The notes beneath the pieces are model-generated. The model was not told the origin of the DNA, made no database searches, and saw only the letters and a list, made by a program, of their open reading frames with translations. Positions 39,259 to 64,000 of a DNA stretch of 64,000 bases are shown piece after piece (the stretch's first letter is position 1; each line of letters opens with the position of its first letter). The position numbers and the translations under genes are program-made. Source of the stretch: Terriglobia bacterium (GTDB lineage Bacteria; Acidobacteriota; Terriglobia; Acidiferrales; UBA7541); NCBI GenBank assembly GCA_963695545.1, contig OY968796.1, positions 3,328,001-3,392,000 on the forward strand. The letters run 5' to 3'.

Positions 39259-39370
39259 AAAACCAGCCCCGTAGGGGCGGCAGAGCTTAGCCCAGGGCGT
39301 AAGCCCTGGGCATGCAAAACAAAAATACCTTTCTCTCAGTTGTTTTGTCTGAGCCCCGTAGGGGCGACAC
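39259..39370. repeat. Composite REP-like element (GCCCCGTAGGGGC family), copy 1
   Basis: AGCCCCGTAGGGGCGGCAGAGCTTAGCCCAGGGCGTAAGCCCTGGG, ~40 nt AT-rich, AGCCCCGTAGGGGCGACAC; three more copies at 61-62 kb and a decayed partial near 39088-39150. Confidence 0.9.
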
Positions 39371-56433: not shown

Positions 56434-57225
56434 TTAATGATGCGCGGCGACGGCGCCGACTACGGCCCCGGTGGCCGCGCCGATCGCGAACCATTTCGCG
56501 CCGCGGCGCAGGCGCGTCCAGAAGCTTCCGCCCTTCGCGCTTGTGACGGCGGCGTCGCGCTGTTGCGTGAGCGCGGTGACCTGCGTCTGCGCGTCGGCCA
56601 AATCTTTTTTCGCGGTGTCGCGGTCGAGCGTGGTCGCCTGGCAATTCTCGAAATAATCGTAGAGCGGCTGGAGATCGGCCTGCGGAATGTTCGCGACGAT
56701 CGGAGCGAGGTTGCTCGGGACTGCGGCGCTCGCGCTCGCGCCAGCGGCGCCCGCGCTGACGCCGGGCGCGGCGGGAAGGCTCGCGCCGTTTTGCGCCGCA
56801 GATTGGGCGTTAGCGGAATTGCTCGCCCTGGTATTCGCGCCGGCGCTCGCAGGCTGATTCCCTGCCCCGCCGGCCTGCGCGTTGGCCGAACTTGGCGCTG
56901 ACGGTGAAATCGTGATCGGTTGCGGCAGCGGCGGCAGCGCCGACGGCAGCGCGGCGAGCGCTTGCTGCGGCGTCTGAACTTTTTTCTCGAGCGCGGCGAT
57001 TTGCGCGAGCTGCGTCGCGAGTTGCGCGTCGCGCGCTTTTTCGCTGGCTGCGGCCGCGTCGAGATGTTTCTGCGATGCCGCGAGCGTGGCCGAAAGCGCC
57101 GCGGCGCTGCGATGCGCCGCAAACCACGCGTGCGCGATCAGCGCCGCAGCGATCAGCAGCGCGACAAGCGCGACCGCGCGCCAATGTTTCCAGGCGAGTT
57201 CGTCGAGTGAGAGGGGAATTGACAT
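56434..57225 (-). CDS. Membrane-anchored coiled-coil protein, spanin-like by position
   Basis: N-terminal TM, Ala/Gln coiled coils, Pro-rich linker, C-terminal hydrophobic GxxxG segment. Confidence 0.6.
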   Translation of the reverse strand: MSIPLSLDELAWKHWRAVALVALLIAAALIAHAWFAAHRSAAALSATLAASQKHLDAAAASEKARDAQLATQLAQIAALEKKVQTPQQALAALPSALPPLPQPITISPSAPSSANAQAGGAGNQPASAGANTRASNSANAQSAAQNGASLPAAPGVSAGAAGASASAAVPSNLAPIVANIPQADLQPLYDYFENCQATTLDRDTAKKDLADAQTQVTALTQQRDAAVTSAKGGSFWTRLRRGAKWFAIGAATGAVVGAVAAHH

Positions 57226-57306
57226 ATAGGTCAGCGCATCTCGTCGCGCTAGACGGTCAGAATGCCCGCGGTAAGAGCGTGGAGATGGAGCATCGGCAAT
57301 TCAGAG

Positions 57307-57624
57307 TTAGGACTTTGTTGGTTTCTGAGTTGATCGCGATTGCGGGGAACTGGACTGTGATTCTACGGCGATGATTTTCTTGTTTTTCAGGATTTCGATG
57401 TAGTCATCGAGTGACACGTCACACCTGATCAGACCCGCCAATTGCTTCTCGTTGAGTTTCAGTTGCTGTCTGATCAGATTCCCGGGCTGTTCTTTATTTC
57501 CCTGTGAGCGTTTTGTGCGGACCACCGTCTGACCGCCATATTCAAACCAAGCGAGTCGGTCTCCGCTGTTACGTACCTTGAGTCCTAACTTGTTTACGAT
57601 TTTCTCAAATTCATGGACTTTCAT
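57307..57624 (-). CDS. HicA-like small basic protein (putative toxin)
   Basis: 105 aa, alpha-beta-beta-beta-alpha pattern, TKRSQG and LIRQQLKL segments; overlaps the upstream HicB-like gene; visibly lower GC. Confidence 0.6.
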   Translation of the reverse strand: MKVHEFEKIVNKLGLKVRNSGDRLAWFEYGGQTVVRTKRSQGNKEQPGNLIRQQLKLNEKQLAGLIRCDVSLDDYIEILKNKKIIAVESQSSSPQSRSTQKPTKS

Positions 57625-58045
57625 GGGGCCGCCGCACGACATGCTCTTTCAATACACCCCAGACTTTGGCTAAGTCCGGCCCGAGGCGCGGTTCCTCTGC
57701 CTCCAGTGAAACGTAGAGTTCAGCGATCGTATGTCCGAGATCATCGCAAGCCGAGGAATTCGACTTGCCGGTTCCAAATTCGTCCACCTGCCTCCACGAC
57801 GCGATAGCAGTGGCTCCGCGTCGGTCCAGATCGACGGGGATCGGCTTAATCACTCGAAACTCGCATCGACTGATCGTCCCGAGGAGGATCTGCTTCGGGC
57901 CGCGTTCCCGTCTGCGAATATGAACTTTAATTCTTTGGATAACGTCGTGAAGCACCACTGCCTGTGGGACATCGGGCGGTGGCACAAATTTGGGCGCAGG
58001 CTGCTCAAGATTTTGATTTACAAGGTATTGGGGCATAGCGGCCAT
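57611..58045 (-). CDS. HicB-like protein (putative antitoxin)
   Basis: C-terminal EFGTG....ACDDL..TIAELY..L...LGPDL resembling the HicB partial RNase H fold. Confidence 0.55.
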   Translation of the reverse strand: MAAMPQYLVNQNLEQPAPKFVPPPDVPQAVVLHDVIQRIKVHIRRRERGPKQILLGTISRCEFRVIKPIPVDLDRRGATAIASWRQVDEFGTGKSNSSACDDLGHTIAELYVSLEAEEPRLGPDLAKVWGVLKEHVVRRPHESP

Positions 58046-58048
58046 ACT

Positions 58049-58477
58049 CTAGTTACCTCGTATCAGCCCTAGGGGCGGAATCTGAAGCTTGTCGGCCCTG
58101 ACGAGAGCCCGGCCGAGAAAGACGTCGTTTGCATACAGCTGGAACTCATAAGTCCCGAATTCGGCTATGGGGATGCCGGCGAAATTGAACGCCAATTCCA
58201 TCGGATCGTCTGGCTTGGCCCATTGCGCGTCCACCCTTATCTCCACGACAGGAGATTCGTCCCTGAGATTCACCAGTCGAACCCGAAGGTTGTACGTCCC
58301 AGAACCCTCAACCAATTTCGCATACAGGCCTAGGCTGTTTATCGGAAACGGAACGGCCGGAGACTGAACTCGATCAAAAACTCCCACAAGCGTTCGTTTT
58401 TGAGTCGCAGCGTCTTGTATCACCGTGTCGCAAACGATGATCGCCAAAACTGTCGGAATGGGGCTGGATTCAGCCAT
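58049..58477 (-). CDS. DUF6941-like all-beta protein
   Basis: AIIVCDTVIQD...KRTLVGVFDR and GTYEFQLYAND motifs recalled from DUF6941. Confidence 0.7.
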   Translation of the reverse strand: MAESSPIPTVLAIIVCDTVIQDAATQKRTLVGVFDRVQSPAVPFPINSLGLYAKLVEGSGTYNLRVRLVNLRDESPVVEIRVDAQWAKPDDPMELAFNFAGIPIAEFGTYEFQLYANDVFLGRALVRADKLQIPPLGLIRGN

Positions 58478-58665
58478 CAAGCAATATCTAGGACATCATC
58501 AGCCGGAATGTTCGTGAAAGCAAGGGGGCACGCGGTTACAGTACGCCCGATCCGCAGGTTTCGCCTCCTCTTCGCTCCCGTGGCGCGCGCGATAAGACCA
58601 GCTAGTTGTCTGCGGCGCGCGCTCTTGTGTGTTAATCAAGGTAAAGGCCCATCCGCGCGGCGATT

Positions 58666-59109
58666 TCATTTGTAATGCGCGACGCGAGACAAAACCTCGG
58701 CGGGATAATCGCGATTGGCGCCGCCGTTCCAGGCGAGCAGGGCGCGCGTCGCGTCGCCGGCGGCGGCGTCGAATTTCGCGCGCAATTGGCGGCAGCCGAA
58801 TTCGAGGCCAGTGGCGGGATCGCAGAGTTCGGCGAGCGACGCGGCTTCGCAGCCGAGCTCGCGCGCCACCTGGCCCATCAGCTGCATCAGGCCCCAGGAG
58901 ATCGAGCGCGTGTAGGCCTCGGTGGCGGAAATTTTGCCGGCGTTGTAGAGCGGGGCGATGTAGCGCGCGAGAAAACCCGGCTCATAGCGCACGGCCCACG
59001 GATTCCAGGCCGATTCCTGTTCGACGACCGCGCAGACCAGCGGCGGATCGAGTTTGTGCGCGACCGCGGCAACGCGAGCGAGCGCGATGAGTGCGGGCGG
59101 TGCGGACAC
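58666..59109 (-). CDS. Lytic transglycosylase (SLT domain), endolysin candidate
   Basis: AVVEQESAW (catalytic Glu), SWGLMQLM, ALLAWNGG; no signal peptide. Confidence 0.9.
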   Translation of the reverse strand: MSAPPALIALARVAAVAHKLDPPLVCAVVEQESAWNPWAVRYEPGFLARYIAPLYNAGKISATEAYTRSISWGLMQLMGQVARELGCEAASLAELCDPATGLEFGCRQLRAKFDAAAGDATRALLAWNGGANRDYPAEVLSRVAHYK

Positions 59110-59192
59110 TGAATATCTGAAGGGTGAAAATGGGATCGACGGCGCAGCGTCTATGGGCGGAAATCCAAGAGAAACAGAACGGGCGGCACCGT

Positions 59193-59229
59193 AAAAAAGA
59201 AAGGACTCGACCGAAGCCGAGTCCTTTCT
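59193..59229 (-). terminator. Intrinsic terminator of the predicted sRNA
   Basis: Minus strand AGAAAGGACTCG-GCTTCGGT-CGAGTCCTTTCT then a T run: 12-bp stem with a cUUCGg loop. Confidence 0.9.
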
Positions 59230-59251
59230 AAGAATCTGTCCTTGCCAAGGT
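59193..59251 (-). ncRNA. Predicted ~59-nt sRNA antisense to the anticodon arm of the neighbouring tRNA
   Basis: Bounded by a consensus promoter and a terminator; 5' end ACCUUGGCAAGGAC is the exact reverse complement of tRNA positions 28-41. Confidence 0.75.
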
Positions 59252-59257
59252 AAGAAC

Positions 59258-59286
59258 AGATTAACCGAAACAGCCTAGGCTGTCAA
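59258..59286 (-). promoter_or_regulatory. Sigma70-type promoter for the sRNA
   Basis: TTGACA (59286-59281), 17 nt, TAATCT (59263-59258); A at 59251 lies 7 nt downstream; palindrome ACAGCCTAGGCTGT at 59270-59283. Confidence 0.78.
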
Positions 59287-59332
59287 GATAACTTCCTACG
59301 CATATCCCTTTTTGCATAGGCCATGCAACCGC

Positions 59333-59404
59333 TGGACGCGACGGGGCTCGAACCCGCAACCCGACCTTGGCAAGGACGTGTGTTCCCAATTACACCACGC
59401 GCCC
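59333..59404 (-). tRNA. Atypical tRNA: anticodon GCC (Gly) with Ala-type acceptor stem; CCA not encoded
   Basis: GGGCGCG TG GTGT AATTGGGA ACAC A CGTCC TTGCCAA GGTCG GGTT GCGGG TTCGAGC CCCGT CGCGTCC A folds into a full cloverleaf with U8, A14, G18, G19, U33, TTC and A58. Confidence 0.92.
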
Positions 59405-59411
59405 ACGTGTA

Positions 59412-59440
59412 CTACTAACATATCTATCCGTGTCTGACAA
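59412..59440 (-). promoter_or_regulatory. Possible weak promoter for the tRNA
   Basis: TTGTCA, 17 nt ending TGT, then TAGTAG, 7 nt before G1; the -10 lacks the conserved final T. Confidence 0.4.
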
Positions 59441-59513
59441 CACATGGATCGATGGTCCAAGGCTGCGCCACCTGTGAATCGGACCAAAGCGGAAGTCAAA
59501 ACCGCGCACTGTG

Positions 59514-59759
59514 TCAATCGCGGCGCTTGGTGTCGGTCAGGTCGATGAAGCCGATCGCGGGGGGATCCTCGAGATGAATGCCGAGATGATCGGCGATCTG
59601 GCGCAGCGCGTGGTGCAGGTGTGGCAGATGGATCAGCGCCATGGCGGTGACAAAAGTGCGGCGGATTTCATCGTCGCGCATGCGTCGATGCAGCCAACGC
59701 ACGAACAGCGTGAATTGCGCCAGAATCGCGAATGCGACGACGACCCAGTAGGGGTTCAT
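59514..59759 (-). CDS. Small single-TM protein, holin-like by position
   Basis: GGAGG RBS; N-terminal TM followed by a basic segment; nearest protein gene upstream of the SLT. Confidence 0.55.
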   Translation of the reverse strand: MNPYWVVVAFAILAQFTLFVRWLHRRMRDDEIRRTFVTAMALIHLPHLHHALRQIADHLGIHLEDPPAIGFIDLTDTKRRD

Positions 59760-59924
59760 GTCGTCCTCCGAACTGATCTGGCGTGGGGCGGAGCGAGCCG
59801 GCGCGGTTTCGTGGCGCGTGCCGCTCGCGCACCCTGCGATCTTTCGCGCGCACAGATTTCGAGCGAAAGTCCTCGGTCAGAGGAGCTTTCGCGGTAAACA
59901 AGTCAAATTTAATTTACGTGCTTG

Positions 59925-60479
59925 TCAGATGGCACCGCCGATGCCGGCGGTTAGGCCGTTCGGGCCGATGCCGAGATTGAAACTGTTGCTGGGAGCGGCG
60001 GCGCGTTGCTGAACGCCCAAAATATCGCTGGGGATGCCGAGCGCGCGGCCGAGCAGGCCGGAATTTGTGCCGTACAAACCAGCGAGACCTTGCAGCGCGG
60101 CGAGCTGATCGGATTGCTGTTTATTCGCGAATGCGATCTGCGCATTTTGCGCGACGGTGGCGGCGCTGGTGCCATAATTCCGCGAGAGCGCGTCGAGCGT
60201 GCTGTTGTAGCCGGCGTTGTTGTTGGTGGCGGCGGCGCGCGTGGCGGCGTTGTTCATCAGCGAATCGAACGTGCTGCCGAGCGCGCCCATGGCTTGCCCG
60301 GTGATCGCGGATTGCTGCGCCGCGGTGTAGCCGGGATTGTTCAGCAGATTCTGATAGCCCGGCAGCAGCTGGCTATAGAGCGAAGAATTCTGGCTGGTGA
60401 GATTTTGATTGATCGCGTTCTGCGTGGCGAGTTGCTGATTGGTCGCCTGGACCGTTTGCCCTTCTGAGCCGCGTCCCAT
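59925..60479 (-). CDS. Phage internal virion/ejection protein-like
   Basis: GGAGG RBS; Q/N/A/G-rich, nearly uncharged, helical; downstream of nozzle-like genes. Confidence 0.55.
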   Translation of the reverse strand: MGRGSEGQTVQATNQQLATQNAINQNLTSQNSSLYSQLLPGYQNLLNNPGYTAAQQSAITGQAMGALGSTFDSLMNNAATRAAATNNNAGYNSTLDALSRNYGTSAATVAQNAQIAFANKQQSDQLAALQGLAGLYGTNSGLLGRALGIPSDILGVQQRAAAPSNSFNLGIGPNGLTAGIGGAI

Positions 60480-60549
60480 GTGAAGACACCTCCGTGGAAT
60501 GAATTCGAGATTTGAGTGGCGGCGCGCGTGATTCGCGCGATGTGTTTTT

Positions 60550-60622
60550 TGTAGCGGAGGCCTTTAGGCCTCCATCTGGGGCGTGCGTGGAAAAGGCTGG
60601 AGGCCTAAAGGCCTCCGCTACA
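60550..60622. repeat. GTAG-type REP doublet in inverted orientation
   Basis: TGTAGCGGAGGCCTTTAGGCCTCCA ... TGGAGGCCTAAAGGCCTCCGCTACA. Confidence 0.88.
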
Positions 60623-60687
60623 TAACCCGTGCTACAGAGCCGCGGCCGCGAGCCTCGGCGATGCGCGCTCCGCAAACGAAGCGTGCG

Positions 60688-61209
60688 TTACGAGTTTCCG
60701 CTGGTCGTGGTTTTGCCGAAGCCGGAGCCGCCGCTGCCGCCGCTGGCGGTGCCGCTGCCGGATGAAGCTTGCGGCGCGGGGCCGGCCGCGCCTCCGCCGA
60801 CAACCGGCGTGGCGGGCGAACCGAAGACGACCGCGGCCGATGGTTGCGAGCCGAGATATTGCGAATAGCCGCGCCAATATAATGTTTGGTTGCCGAGCGA
60901 AACGCGCAGATTGCGCGAGCTGCCCAGAAAATAAACGTGCGGCGCGGCGAAGCCGGGCGTGCTGTCCGACTCGACGAAATAATATATGCCCTTATTCACG
61001 GCGGAATTGTCGGTGATGGCCACGTCGAAAATTCCGTCGGCCGCGACCACGGAGATTCCGCCGATCGGCGCGGGCGCGGTGATGTCGCCCGAAGGATCCA
61101 CGCCCGTCGCGCGGCCGATCGAATTCACGGCGGAGATGACCTGCGTGATGGCTTCGTAGGTGTACGGCGATTCGCTTTTGATGCGCGCGAGTTGTGGGAC
61201 GGTGAGCAT
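60688..61209 (-). CDS. Hypothetical phage structural protein
   Basis: 173 aa, beta-rich core with G/S tail, in the co-oriented late gene run. Confidence 0.6.
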   Translation of the reverse strand: MLTVPQLARIKSESPYTYEAITQVISAVNSIGRATGVDPSGDITAPAPIGGISVVAADGIFDVAITDNSAVNKGIYYFVESDSTPGFAAPHVYFLGSSRNLRVSLGNQTLYWRGYSQYLGSQPSAAVVFGSPATPVVGGGAAGPAPQASSGSGTASGGSGGSGFGKTTTSGNS

Positions 61210-61239
61210 TTGAATCGAATACGATTTTCGCGAACGTTT

Positions 61240-61346
61240 GTGTCGCCCCTACGGGGCTTAAAACAATTGGAGAAAATATAAAATGGACCGCGTACCCAGG
61301 GCTTACGCCCTGGGCTAAGCTCTGCCGCCCCTACGGGGCTGGTTTT
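61240..61346. repeat. Composite REP-like element, copy 2 (inverted relative to copy 1)
   Basis: Reverse complement of the 39259 element with a different AT-rich middle; another GTAG REP half at about 61403-61426. Confidence 0.9.
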
Positions 61347-61447
61347 CGTGCGGGCCGCGATTTCGTCACGTGGCGCGACCTCAGCATTGCGCGAAAAAAG
61401 ATGCCGCCCTAAAGGGCGGCGCTACAACGACAAAGTCTACGGCGCAA

Positions 61448-61849
61448 TCACGCGACGTCAACCTTGCGGCAGAAGCAGGGCCAGGGATCGCGGCGCCAGC
61501 CCAGGCGCGCGAGGCGACGGCCGAAGGCGCGCGCGACGGGCGGCGGCAGAAACGCTTGTGCGTCGTCGAGGCCGCGGGCGGCGGCGGCGCGGCGCGTGGC
61601 TTCGTGCATCACCAGAAAACGCTGCCAGCGATCGCGCGGTGTGCCGGCACGCGGATCGTGAAGCAAATATGTTTCGGCGGTCAGGCGCAGGAGCACGCCC
61701 ATGGCCGGCTCGCCGGAATCGTCCTCGAGCACCAATTTTGAAATGAATAGCGGGCTCGTGAGATCGGGAAACGGATAGCCGAAGCCTTGCGCGGCGTGCA
61801 GGCGGCGCAGAGCGTCGAGATCGCGTTCCGTATATTCGCGGATCAACAT
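61448..61849 (-). CDS. Hypothetical protein with GNAT-like pattern (podovirus head-tail region type)
   Basis: MLIREYTERDLDAL start and FGRRLARLGW end; directly after the nozzle-like gene. Confidence 0.55.
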   Translation of the reverse strand: MLIREYTERDLDALRRLHAAQGFGYPFPDLTSPLFISKLVLEDDSGEPAMGVLLRLTAETYLLHDPRAGTPRDRWQRFLVMHEATRRAAAARGLDDAQAFLPPPVARAFGRRLARLGWRRDPWPCFCRKVDVA

Positions 61850-61952
61850 CTGGGACGAAAGAAGGAAAATTCGACGGACCCGCGTGTGGGGCCGGTGCGA
61901 GGTGGCGCCGGGAGGTGGCGCTCGCCGCGCGATCACAAATCGCTTCGTGATG

Positions 61953-62206
61953 CAGCCCCGTAGGGGCGGCAGAGCTTAGCCCAGGGCGTAAGCCCTGGGT
62001 GGACAAATCCTCCACACGTTTTTCATCAAATGTTTTTCTTAAGCCCCGTAGGGGCGACACAGTCGTTGAATCAATTGCGGATATCGCGAGCGCTTGTGCC
62101 GCCCCTACGGGGCTAAGACAAAACATTTGGGAATAATCTAATTTGCGAATCGTTCCCAGGGCTTACGCCCTGGGCTAAGCTCTTTCGCCCCTACGGGGCT
62201 GGTTTT
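61953..62206. repeat. Two composite REP-like elements (copies 3 and 4) in inverted arrangement
   Basis: 61953-62060 forward and about 62096-62206 reverse. Confidence 0.9.
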
Positions 62207-62258
62207 CGAGTGCGCGGCGATTTCGTCCCGTGGCGCGATTGTCGCGGGCACGGTTTGC

Positions 62259-62348
62259 GTAGCACAGCCATTCCTGGCTGTGCGATTTTGGGTTTTCTAC
62301 ACGCGGCGCAAAAAAGCAAAGGCGCACAGGCAGGAATGCCTGTGCTAC
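62259..62348. repeat. GTAG-type REP doublet, another family
   Basis: GTAGCACAGCCATTCCTGGCTGTGCG ... CGCACAGGCAGGAATGCCTGTGCTAC. Confidence 0.85.
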
Positions 62349-62466
62349 GAAAAGACGATGGCGCGCCCCGCTACACGAGGCAGAACATTCAGCACGCCCG
62401 CGCGCGGCAAACACCGAGAGATCCCTCGTCGAGGACTCCTCGGGATGACGGCGCTTGGTCGCGCCG

Positions 62467-64000
62467 TCAATTCACGCCGCGGACGATGGACCATGGGTCG
62501 GGCATCAGGCTGGGGATGAAGCGCTCCATCTCGAACCAGGAGCCGGCGGAATTTGTGCCGAACTGGAAGGCGACGCGCTCGGCGAGAACGTTGATCGGCA
62601 ATTCCAGATCGTGCGGCGAGTGCGAGGCGAGCGTTAGCGCGGGCAGCGACGCGGCGTAGGCTTCGCTATCGGCGAACGCGCTTAAATTCAACGTGCCGGT
62701 GCCTTGGGCGTAGAGCGTGAGATACGAAAACAATTTTCGGTGCGCGCGCACGTCGAATTGCTGCTCGAGGTCGTGGCTCAGAAAGAAAAATGTGGTGTAG
62801 TAGGCGTCGATCGCGGCGCCGTCGTCGGAATATTGCGTGTCGAGCATTTGATAGATTTTGCCGTTGCCCACGCCGTTGCCCAAAAACAATTGCGCGGTGC
62901 CGTTTGCGCGTTCGGCGAGCGTGGCGCAATTCGCCACGATGCTCCACGGGCACCAGCGGCGCGAGCGGCCGGCGGAAAACAATTTTCCGCTGATGGTAGA
63001 AAAGTGATACGGGCCGAGGCCGGCGATTTCGCTCGAAGAAAAGCAGCTGCGGTAATCGAGCATCAGCACGATCGAAGGCGTGGTCGCGGTGCCCAGCGGA
63101 ACGCCGCACAGAATGCGGCGATTGGTGGTGTCCACGCGGACCCACAGCGTGTTGCCCGCGGCCCAATTGATCTGGTCCCACAGCGGCTGAATTTCCTGCG
63201 AGATTTTCACCGGCTCGCCGCCATCATATATATAGAGGCCCTGGCGCGCGGCGATCACAGCCCAATCTTCGCCGATGTCCACGCCATTCACGGAGGGCGT
63301 GCCGACGGTGCGCGAAATTTCGGTCACGCTCCACGAAGCCGGCTCGCTGCCACTGGAATCCTGCGTGGAATAAAGTTCGTGGTCCTTCGCGAAATATAAA
63401 ATTCCGCGCAACTCGAACGCGGCGCGCACGGCTTGCCCATCGCCTTCCGCGATTTCGAGCAGGCCGGTGACGCCGTCGTAGCTTTCCGGGCTGCCGGCGG
63501 TCGAAGCGCGCACCACGCTGGTGTTGTACGGCTCGGCGGTGGGGAAAATCTCGATGTTGTCCACGCCGAATCCGCCGCCGACGCTCGGCGTGCCGTCGGC
63601 ATCAACGCGCAGCACGAGATCGGACGGAATGGTGGCGATCGCGGGCGTTAGCGGCGCGATAAATTCCTGCCACGCGGAGGTGGCTTGCGCGGCGGTGACT
63701 TCGATGCCGGTGGTGTTGATTCCGGCCGACGCGCTGTAAAGATGAATGTGCAGCGTGCCCTGCGTCGCAGGCGGCGAACCGACGGCGCGCACGCGCGCGC
63801 GCACGGAGTACGCGGTCTGCACGGCGATGCGCGTGACGCCGAGATAGTCCGCGACCGCGCTTTGCGTGATCAGGCCGCGCGTGGCGGTCGTGCCGTCGCC
63901 GAGAATATCGTACGCGCCGCCCCACACGCCGTTATCGCGCTGGCCGCCGGTGAAAAATGTGGCGTCGGGCGTCCAGCCGAGCGGCACGCCGCTGGTGGGA
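62467..64000 (-). CDS. Phage tail nozzle/stabilisation-like protein, 5'-truncated
   Basis: Over 506 aa, beta-propeller-like; YDGGEPVKISQEIQPLW resembles podoviral nozzle proteins (pattern-level only). Confidence 0.55.
   Translation of the reverse strand, partial: PTSGVPLGWTPDATFFTGGQRDNGVWGGAYDILGDGTTATRGLITQSAVADYLGVTRIAVQTAYSVRARVRAVGSPPATQGTLHIHLYSASAGINTTGIEVTAAQATSAWQEFIAPLTPAIATIPSDLVLRVDADGTPSVGGGFGVDNIEIFPTAEPYNTSVVRASTAGSPESYDGVTGLLEIAEGDGQAVRAAFELRGILYFAKDHELYSTQDSSGSEPASWSVTEISRTVGTPSVNGVDIGEDWAVIAARQGLYIYDGGEPVKISQEIQPLWDQINWAAGNTLWVRVDTTNRRILCGVPLGTATTPSIVLMLDYRSCFSSSEIAGLGPYHFSTISGKLFSAGRSRRWCPWSIVANCATLAERANGTAQLFLGNGVGNGKIYQMLDTQYSDDGAAIDAYYTTFFFLSHDLEQQFDVRAHRKLFSYLTLYAQGTGTLNLSAFADSEAYAASLPALTLASHSPHDLELPINVLAERVAFQFGTNSAGSWFEMERFIPSLMPDPWSIVRGVN

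Follow-up and report, generated by a model that had tools for sequence, protein, structure and literature searches.

In a 64,000-nucleotide stretch of the genome of a Terriglobia bacterium (contig OY968796.1; "the window" means this whole stretch), the sole transfer RNA (tRNA) gene, at 59333-59404 on the minus strand, combines an alanine-type acceptor with the glycine anticodon GCC (59371-59369), and a predicted small RNA encoded downstream of it displays the matching codon. That the sequences of the tRNA and the small RNA have been selected to pair is strongly supported computationally, and far more certain than a role of the tRNA as a toxin. On comparative sequence grounds we consider it probable that the two form an all-RNA toxin-antitoxin module, in which an Ala-mistranslating tRNA would be held silent by a codon-bearing small RNA. 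With slightly more reserve, we also think it likely that the module represents a widespread, undescribed kind of toxin-antitoxin system: the toxin would be a host-charged, code-corrupting tRNA and the antitoxin an anticodon-capping RNA of about 60 nucleotides, the two reprogrammed by matched one-base changes and serving addiction or abortive phage defence. The module was found in more than 100 distinct loci (the named ones in Acidobacteriota, with variants in Patescibacteria), with the anticodons GUC, GCC, GCG and GCA.

The whole module spans about 230 bp of the minus strand. The tRNA is followed by a 3' trailer that reaches to a second promoter and can form a local hairpin (59287-59332); by this sigma-70-like promoter of the small RNA (59258-59286; -35 box TTGACA at 59286-59281, a spacer of 17 nucleotides, -10 box TAATCT at 59263-59258), overlapped by a 14-bp palindrome (59270-59283); and by the small RNA itself, the candidate antitoxin, of about 59 nucleotides (59193-59251), which begins 81 nucleotides downstream of the tRNA. 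A repeat search returned a perfect 14-nucleotide inverted repeat, with one copy in the anticodon arm (59364-59377) and the other at 59238-59251, an antisense stretch that exactly complements tRNA positions 28-41, also in the U29 variant found here, and contains the codon GGC (59246-59244); the predicted start, 59251, is its first complementary base. An intrinsic terminator (59193-59229), with a 14-pair stem and a U run, closes the small RNA, and a terminator scan matched 59229-59198, 3' of the antisense stretch. A sigma-70 consensus scan called no promoter in the window, the small-RNA promoter scoring below the scan's threshold, and Rfam assigned no family to the small RNA. A hairpin at 59233-59262, on the flank of the antisense, was discarded as a part of the small RNA; it overlaps the -10 box and so would fall outside it. 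A possible -10 box of the tRNA promoter (TATGTT, 59417-59422; TATGAT in the same place in G003, a genome of the same genus) has no good -35 box and is a weak call; in the family, TAnnnT motifs cluster at -15 to -12 upstream of the tRNA, and a promoter upstream of the tRNA was seen in 29 of 109 modules, which is not above background.

Covariation of the anticodon and the antisense codon

Wider patterns were searched in viral contigs, metagenomes and class genomes, and the family counts obtained are lower bounds. At least 376 parsed records gave 217 that have the family D stem and 160 or more nucleotides of downstream sequence; among the resulting unique records (at least 193), the anticodon was GTC in 65, TGC in 50, GCC in 40, TCT in 8, GCG in 5, CCA in 5, GCA in 4 and another in 16. 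The 115 records with GCC, GTC, GCG, GCA or GCT form the covariation set, and 109 modules, those scoring 9 or more for the antisense (L249, L265, L266, L308, L326 and L331 being dropped), were used for the tree and for pairing. Genes for tRNA-Ala(UGC), picked up by variable-gap patterns meant to exclude Ala anticodons, were used solely as controls, and a tally of 143/401 from such a pattern does not count modules. The acceptor was fixed by the pattern in the family searches and its invariance there is circular, a circularity that the acceptor-free searches remove.

The pattern of an Ala acceptor with GCC matched 43 genome-contig loci (23 in Acidobacteriota, 10 in Patescibacteria, 10 in others). 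The last ten were rejected as modules, as they had the look of noise, of Ala tRNAs matched out of register or of single mutants; four of them were examined, with no clear antisense. In Patescibacteria the antisense lies downstream of the tRNA in five loci and upstream in five, as judged by eye from duplex folds; in the latter (L009, L015, L020, L021 and L048) the antisense before the Ala-acceptor/GCC tRNA is mostly followed by a hairpin and a T run, and one assembly, G436, holds both arrangements. One viral contig has an Ala-type tRNA with a GCC anticodon and an encoded CCA, without clear antisense (L001:387-460). A further 27 tRNAs with G3.U70 and A73 carry other non-Ala anticodons (TCT 8, CCA 5, CCT 3, ACC 3, CTT 2 and six singles); tRNAs with Arg, Gly(ACC), Lys or Trp anticodons, often with an encoded CCA, lack a downstream antisense (L241, L316, L317 and L335 with TCT; L306 and L347 with ACC; L321, L349 and others), and L306 and L347 show a partial upstream antisense match.

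In the masked test, the antisense was located with the anticodon hidden, and the triplet opposing it was then read. A first version, using all 14 other positions of the arm, returned the matching codon in 89 of 115 records (GTC 47/65, GCC 36/40, GCG 4/5, GCA 2/4, GCT 0/1); a second, using positions 27-33 and 37, which were chosen after the first, returned it in 108 of 115 (GCC 40/40, GTC 61/65, GCG 5/5, GCA 2/4, and GCT 0/1, where the triplet pairs by wobble). The Ala(TGC) controls gave 0/50 in both versions, and in the second the upstream control gave 1/112 and the opposite strand 0/115. An acceptor-free search of 401 class genomes had nine hits, eight of them with an Ala acceptor, and all eight have the antisense codon; it was found in none of the 32 tRNAs with other acceptors (1 from a genome, 31 viral) in the acceptor-free searches.

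Across the 109 modules, Watson-Crick pairing at positions 27-33 was 0.936, compared with 0.64 (maximum 0.696) when partners were shuffled within anticodon classes. The remaining pairs include 34 G.U and two A.C or C.A, an excess of G.U wobbles consistent with RNA pairing on this strand. With the two triplets left out of its construction, the tree has 13 anticodon changes; some long branches are unsure, and the well-supported ones force at least five changes for GTC and for GCC. Between them, the sixteen modules that neighbour an AlkD-like gene carry four anticodons, each with a matching or wobble-pairing triplet. GUC and GCC are one base from Ala GGC, and GCG, GCA and GCU one base from GCC, which suggests an origin by such steps, and the tRNA body resembles phage-type tRNA-Ala(UGC) genes.

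This last resemblance, together with the prophage-like surroundings of the gene and an anticodon arm that is nearly self-complementary, would also suit an ordinary phage tRNA-Gly, or a decaying tRNA-Ala pseudogene, beside a chance or duplicated inverted repeat. Against it stand the repeated co-switching of anticodon and triplet, the intact other stems (pairing is about 98-100% in the acceptor, D and T stems of the 109 modules), the null controls, and the rank of the window tRNA, first of the genome's 53 tRNA genes for downstream antisense; we regard this explanation as most improbable, and as largely refuted by the covariation. The small RNA co-folds with its own tRNA at -9.0 kcal/mol, the best value among the genome's 54 tRNA genes, and with the host tRNA-Gly(GCC) at -1.8, a gene with a chance downstream triplet match of low score (7.5); the family medians are -16.3, -7.5 and -3.6, in an order in which the own tRNA is preferred. 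A remnant att site was ruled out because the repeat, which lies inside the tRNA, is inverted and covaries.

Signals of a separate transcription unit accompany the pairing: a promoter-like site (score at least 7.7 of 12) precedes the antisense in 107/109 modules as against 39/109 shuffles, and a terminator-like site follows it in 82/109 (controls: 8 upstream, 3/50 Ala). Over positions 38-43 the mean pairing run is 1.36 where the -10 box lies 5-8 nucleotides from the codon (n = 45) and 5.65 where it lies 10-14 nucleotides away (n = 63), a correlation that is confounded with subfamily; a fade of pairing that tracks the -10 distance is expected if selection acts on transcribed bases alone.

Identity and predicted charging of the tRNA

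The tRNA gene at 59333-59404 is real: Rfam RF00005 matches it (54.1 bits, E 7e-9), and ARAGORN calls it a minus-strand tRNA-Gly (gcc), the label that the original prediction had expected of anticodon-based annotation. The acceptor has G1-C72, G2-C71, G3.U70 and C4-G69 with discriminator A73, and the core has G18-G19-G20, U8/A14, A15/U48, TTC and A58, so that the identity elements, tertiary bases and anticodon claimed from the first are all present. The variable loop has 4 nucleotides, CCA is unencoded, and the anticodon stem contains the mismatch U29.U41. Errors at U70 and A73, named at the outset as a ground for refutation, were not seen; an assembly error is unlikely, because G003 has a near-identical gene (71/72 bases, with one D-loop change) under a diverged upstream flank, and two soil metatranscriptome contigs that cover U70 and A73 show no alternative letter (depth 2-2.7).

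According to the text of PMC9976931, G3.U70 is the major Ala determinant, the Gly determinants are U73, G1-C72 and C2-G71, and D-aminoacyl-tRNA deacylase (DTD) strips Gly from G3.U70 tRNAs. The window tRNA has C35 and C36, as expected of a tRNA-Gly anticodon; in place of the bacterial tRNA-Gly elements U73 and C2-G71 it has A73 and G2-C71, and it carries the Ala set of G3.U70, G1-C72, G2-C71 and A73. From these identity rules we infer that it should carry Ala rather than Gly. The original interpretation is partly supported: the identity argument for a predicted Gly-to-Ala mistranslator holds up, and the antisense RNA partner, the decisive part, had been overlooked; G20, named among the AlaRS recognition elements, is not a defining one, because it varies across the family, and the Gly anticodon, though present, is merely one of several, Asp GUC being the commonest found.

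The host also encodes an ordinary tRNA-Gly(GCC) with C2-G71 and U73, and its tRNA complement includes Gly(UCC), Gly(CCC) and three Ala tRNAs, of which Ala(UGC) has an acceptor that differs from that of the window tRNA solely at pair 6:67. Genes were found for alanyl-tRNA synthetase (AlaRS), an alpha2beta2 glycyl-tRNA synthetase (GlyRS, encoded as GlyQ plus GlyS), DTD and two PF01743 nucleotidyltransferases (the CCA-adding-enzyme family). The prominence of GGC noted earlier is borne out in the long open reading frames, where it makes up 4.74% of codons (the second commonest) and GGC plus GGU account for 68% of Gly codons. Among module hosts, the normal Gly(GCC) is retained in 5/5 Acidobacteriota and 3/5 Patescibacteria assemblies. 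Irregular tRNAs lie in the same genome at G000:C1 positions 344768-344860, 2007148-2007327, 2260191-2260283 and 1625451-1625526; the irregular set comprises two UAU tRNAs with long arms, a Gly(UCC)-like gene that is degenerate, a Ser-like body that lacks a normal anticodon, and a second tRNA-Asn, and downstream antisense was absent at the odd tRNAs tested (the two Ile-UAU, the second Asn and the Gly-UCC-like one).

Predicted mechanism, alternatives and genomic setting

In the mechanism that we propose, the tRNA would be processed, receive its CCA from the host enzyme and be charged with Ala by AlaRS, whereas GlyRS would disfavour it and DTD would remove Gly. It would read GGC and GGU on the ribosome and place Ala at Gly codons proteome-wide, with toxic effect; other members of the family would place Ala at Asp, Arg or Cys codons. 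The small RNA, made from its own strong promoter, would present the codon together with a sequence complementary to the anticodon stem's 5' strand and invade that weakened stem, and the duplex would block decoding, maturation or both (the pairing is shown by covariation); the same antisense sequence could pair in cis in a read-through precursor. Upon loss of the DNA or shut-off of transcription, the small RNA would decay first and the tRNA would be freed, which would bring about addiction and perhaps abortive infection. How the host can tolerate the tRNA would be explained by an antisense RNA gene dedicated to it. According to the text of PMC5389517, E. coli was killed by natural allo-tRNAs of the missense type, and Ala was inserted by allo-tRNAs with G3.U70.

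Several observations weigh against this toxin-antitoxin reading. The -10 box of the window's small RNA matches 3/6 positions, the 109 modules were selected by antisense score, the start-site correlation carries the confounding noted above, and the 27 other G3.U70/A73 tRNAs have no convincing downstream antisense. Away from this locus the module mostly occupies a few recurring stable sites flanked by housekeeping genes, not mobile elements, and 1/109 modules comes from viral contigs. The minimum-energy fold computed for the bare tRNA differs from the cloverleaf (-29.4 vs -24.5 kcal/mol), and decoding by the tRNA could be poor because of its mismatched anticodon stem. The RNA evidence consists of the two low-depth soil metatranscriptome contigs; they extend from within the tRNA across the promoter to the antisense, a span that suits read-through or DNA rather than a small RNA made separately; the RNA runs X1 and X2 hold a small share and, as contigs, give neither start, strand nor level.

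These spanning contigs, the one clear terminator, and the minimum-energy fold of the read-through precursor, in which the trailer pairs with the anticodon arm in cis, would suit a cis-only maturation lock: a single transcript from tRNA to terminator, whose trailer folds on the anticodon arm until a nuclease or another factor frees the tRNA, a free small RNA being unneeded. We hold this to be unlikely, given the promoter-like site before the antisense in nearly all modules, the onset of complementarity at the predicted start site, and the five Patescibacteria loci with the antisense upstream of the tRNA. Alternatively, the tRNA might not decode, and might be a decoy or sensor (of AlaRS, EF-Tu or anticodon nucleases) or a T-box-like trigger for the downstream RNA. 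One to three anticodon-stem mismatches in 106/109 modules (mostly at pairs 27-29; none in the Ala controls), a CCA encoded in 1/109, and the inactivity in translation of some natural allo-tRNAs (text of PMC5389517) point that way; yet pairs 30-40 and 31-39 and the 7-nucleotide loop are kept, anticodon changes are confined to sense triplets with G34, and the genes downstream (115 neighbour proteins, 23 loci) vary in strand and function, unlike those behind a leader, and we consider a non-decoding role quite improbable.

In the window, the module is an insert in a prophage-like cluster that includes genes for terminase, head and replication functions. Its upstream neighbour (59514-59759, minus strand) encodes a small membrane protein that only its position and size mark as holin-like and that has no family hit, and its downstream neighbour (58666-59109, minus strand) an SLT transglycosylase/endolysin; the holin-like gene is conserved beside the lysin in 28/30 loci, and the module was found in 2/30. 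In G001 the same holin-lysin slot holds a hicAB-like pair (L439:2011-2640), which we count in favour of the toxin-antitoxin reading; the hicB-like gene hits Pfam HicB below the cut-off (E 0.007), and the other gene, with an internal stop, has what we take to be HicA motifs.

Recurring sites elsewhere are beside the AlkD-like gene (16 loci), MqnC (18) and GlnRS (14), and long retention at such orthologous sites might instead reflect regulated adaptive mistranslation, a stress switch that the host keeps and that releases low-level Ala misincorporation (dormancy, proteome diversification), rather than a selfish or defensive toxin. The weakened stems may dampen activity accordingly, and tRNA-ProX, whose host function is given as unknown in the text of PMC11415595, offers a precedent. 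On the other side, the module is present in merely 8/401 class genomes (acceptor-free search), is an insert in few lysin loci here, and switches its target amino acid freely, which fits arbitrary toxicity better than tuned benefit; we find a stress switch rather unlikely.

The prophage-like cluster extends from 56434-64000 of the window onward to about G000:C1:3420000. Few of its genes match PHROGs, and an insertion sequence interrupts the head region; it may be a domesticated prophage or a gene-transfer-agent-like element. Homologues of the SLT lysin (E<=1e-30), nearly always single-copy, occur in 85/151 family genomes and 6/6 genus genomes searched. After the lysin, three low-GC (guanine plus cytosine) genes are inserted on the minus strand (57307-58480), namely DUF6941, an unknown, and a 111-residue basic protein that is HicA-like by eye, without Pfam support; they are possibly a second defence or toxin-antitoxin cassette. 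Acido-Lenti-1 repeats (RF01687) lie at 39265-39310, 61295-61340, 61954-61999 and 62155-62200, three of them inside the cluster.

If the toxin-antitoxin reading is true, the module would give a natural example of a toxin that is a tRNA and of a small RNA targeting a tRNA anticodon, and would offer a testable answer to how the toxic missense tRNAs that have been reported in Acidobacteria are tolerated by genomes. Anticodon-based annotation would be hiding a family of code-corrupting genes labelled tRNA-Gly or tRNA-Asp, and a programmable, protein-free switch of about 230 bp might be of use for mistranslation or suppressor-tRNA control.

Comparison with known systems

Type I toxin-antitoxin systems such as hok/sok are compact loci in which an antisense RNA silences a toxic transcript; the module differs in that its predicted toxin is not a protein and its antisense is a separate same-strand gene, not an overlapping one on the opposite strand. 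T-box leaders display a codon that pairs with a tRNA anticodon; the module pairs over 10-16 nucleotides of stem and loop, with the neighbouring tRNA only, and has neither the constant same-strand downstream gene of such a leader nor a T-box fold; Rfam finds no family on the small RNA. SdsR-RyeA is a type VIII toxin-antitoxin system, and, as in that type, both partners of the module are predicted to be RNAs encoded together. Translation is the target in CreTA too, where both partners are likewise RNA: according to the text of PMC12737573, CreT, a mini-mRNA, ties up a host tRNA, and Cascade, guided by CreA, represses transcription. The module's predicted toxin, in contrast, is itself a tRNA, and its antitoxin would pair directly with the anticodon arm; a CRISPR-repeat-like antitoxin beside cas genes is not what was found, with no cas family among the 115 neighbour proteins of 23 loci and no Rfam repeat family.

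The allo-tRNAs of Mukai et al. are, in the text of PMC5389517, natural missense tRNAs of Acidobacteria with Ser or G3.U70/Ala identity, often near toxin-antitoxin genes and with GUC and GCG among their common anticodons; expressing Ser-type missense allo-tRNAs killed E. coli. The module tRNAs share with them the phylum, the missense character and the anticodons GUC and GCG, but they have a canonical 7/5 structure with a variable loop of 4-5 nucleotides, whereas allo-tRNAs are 8/4 or 9/3 with a long variable arm; in the main and supplement text of PMC5389517 (figures aside), "antisense" and "complementary" have 0 occurrences, and the family motifs were not found in the tables. The tRNA-ProX of Streptomyces, with ProRSx, is a canonical-shaped dual-identity family that has several anticodons and mistranslates in E. 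coli (text of PMC11415595, a review with 0 mentions of antisense or toxin). It has Pro identity, A34 and a co-encoded synthetase; the module has Ala identity, G34 and an antisense RNA partner, and no dedicated synthetase is a constant neighbour among the 115 proteins of 23 loci. A literature search, with subscription journals, figures and bioRxiv supplements beyond its reach, found no description of a tRNA/antisense module. The module would operate much as type I or type VIII systems do, but is outside the allo-tRNAs, tRNA-ProX, CreTA and the T-boxes.
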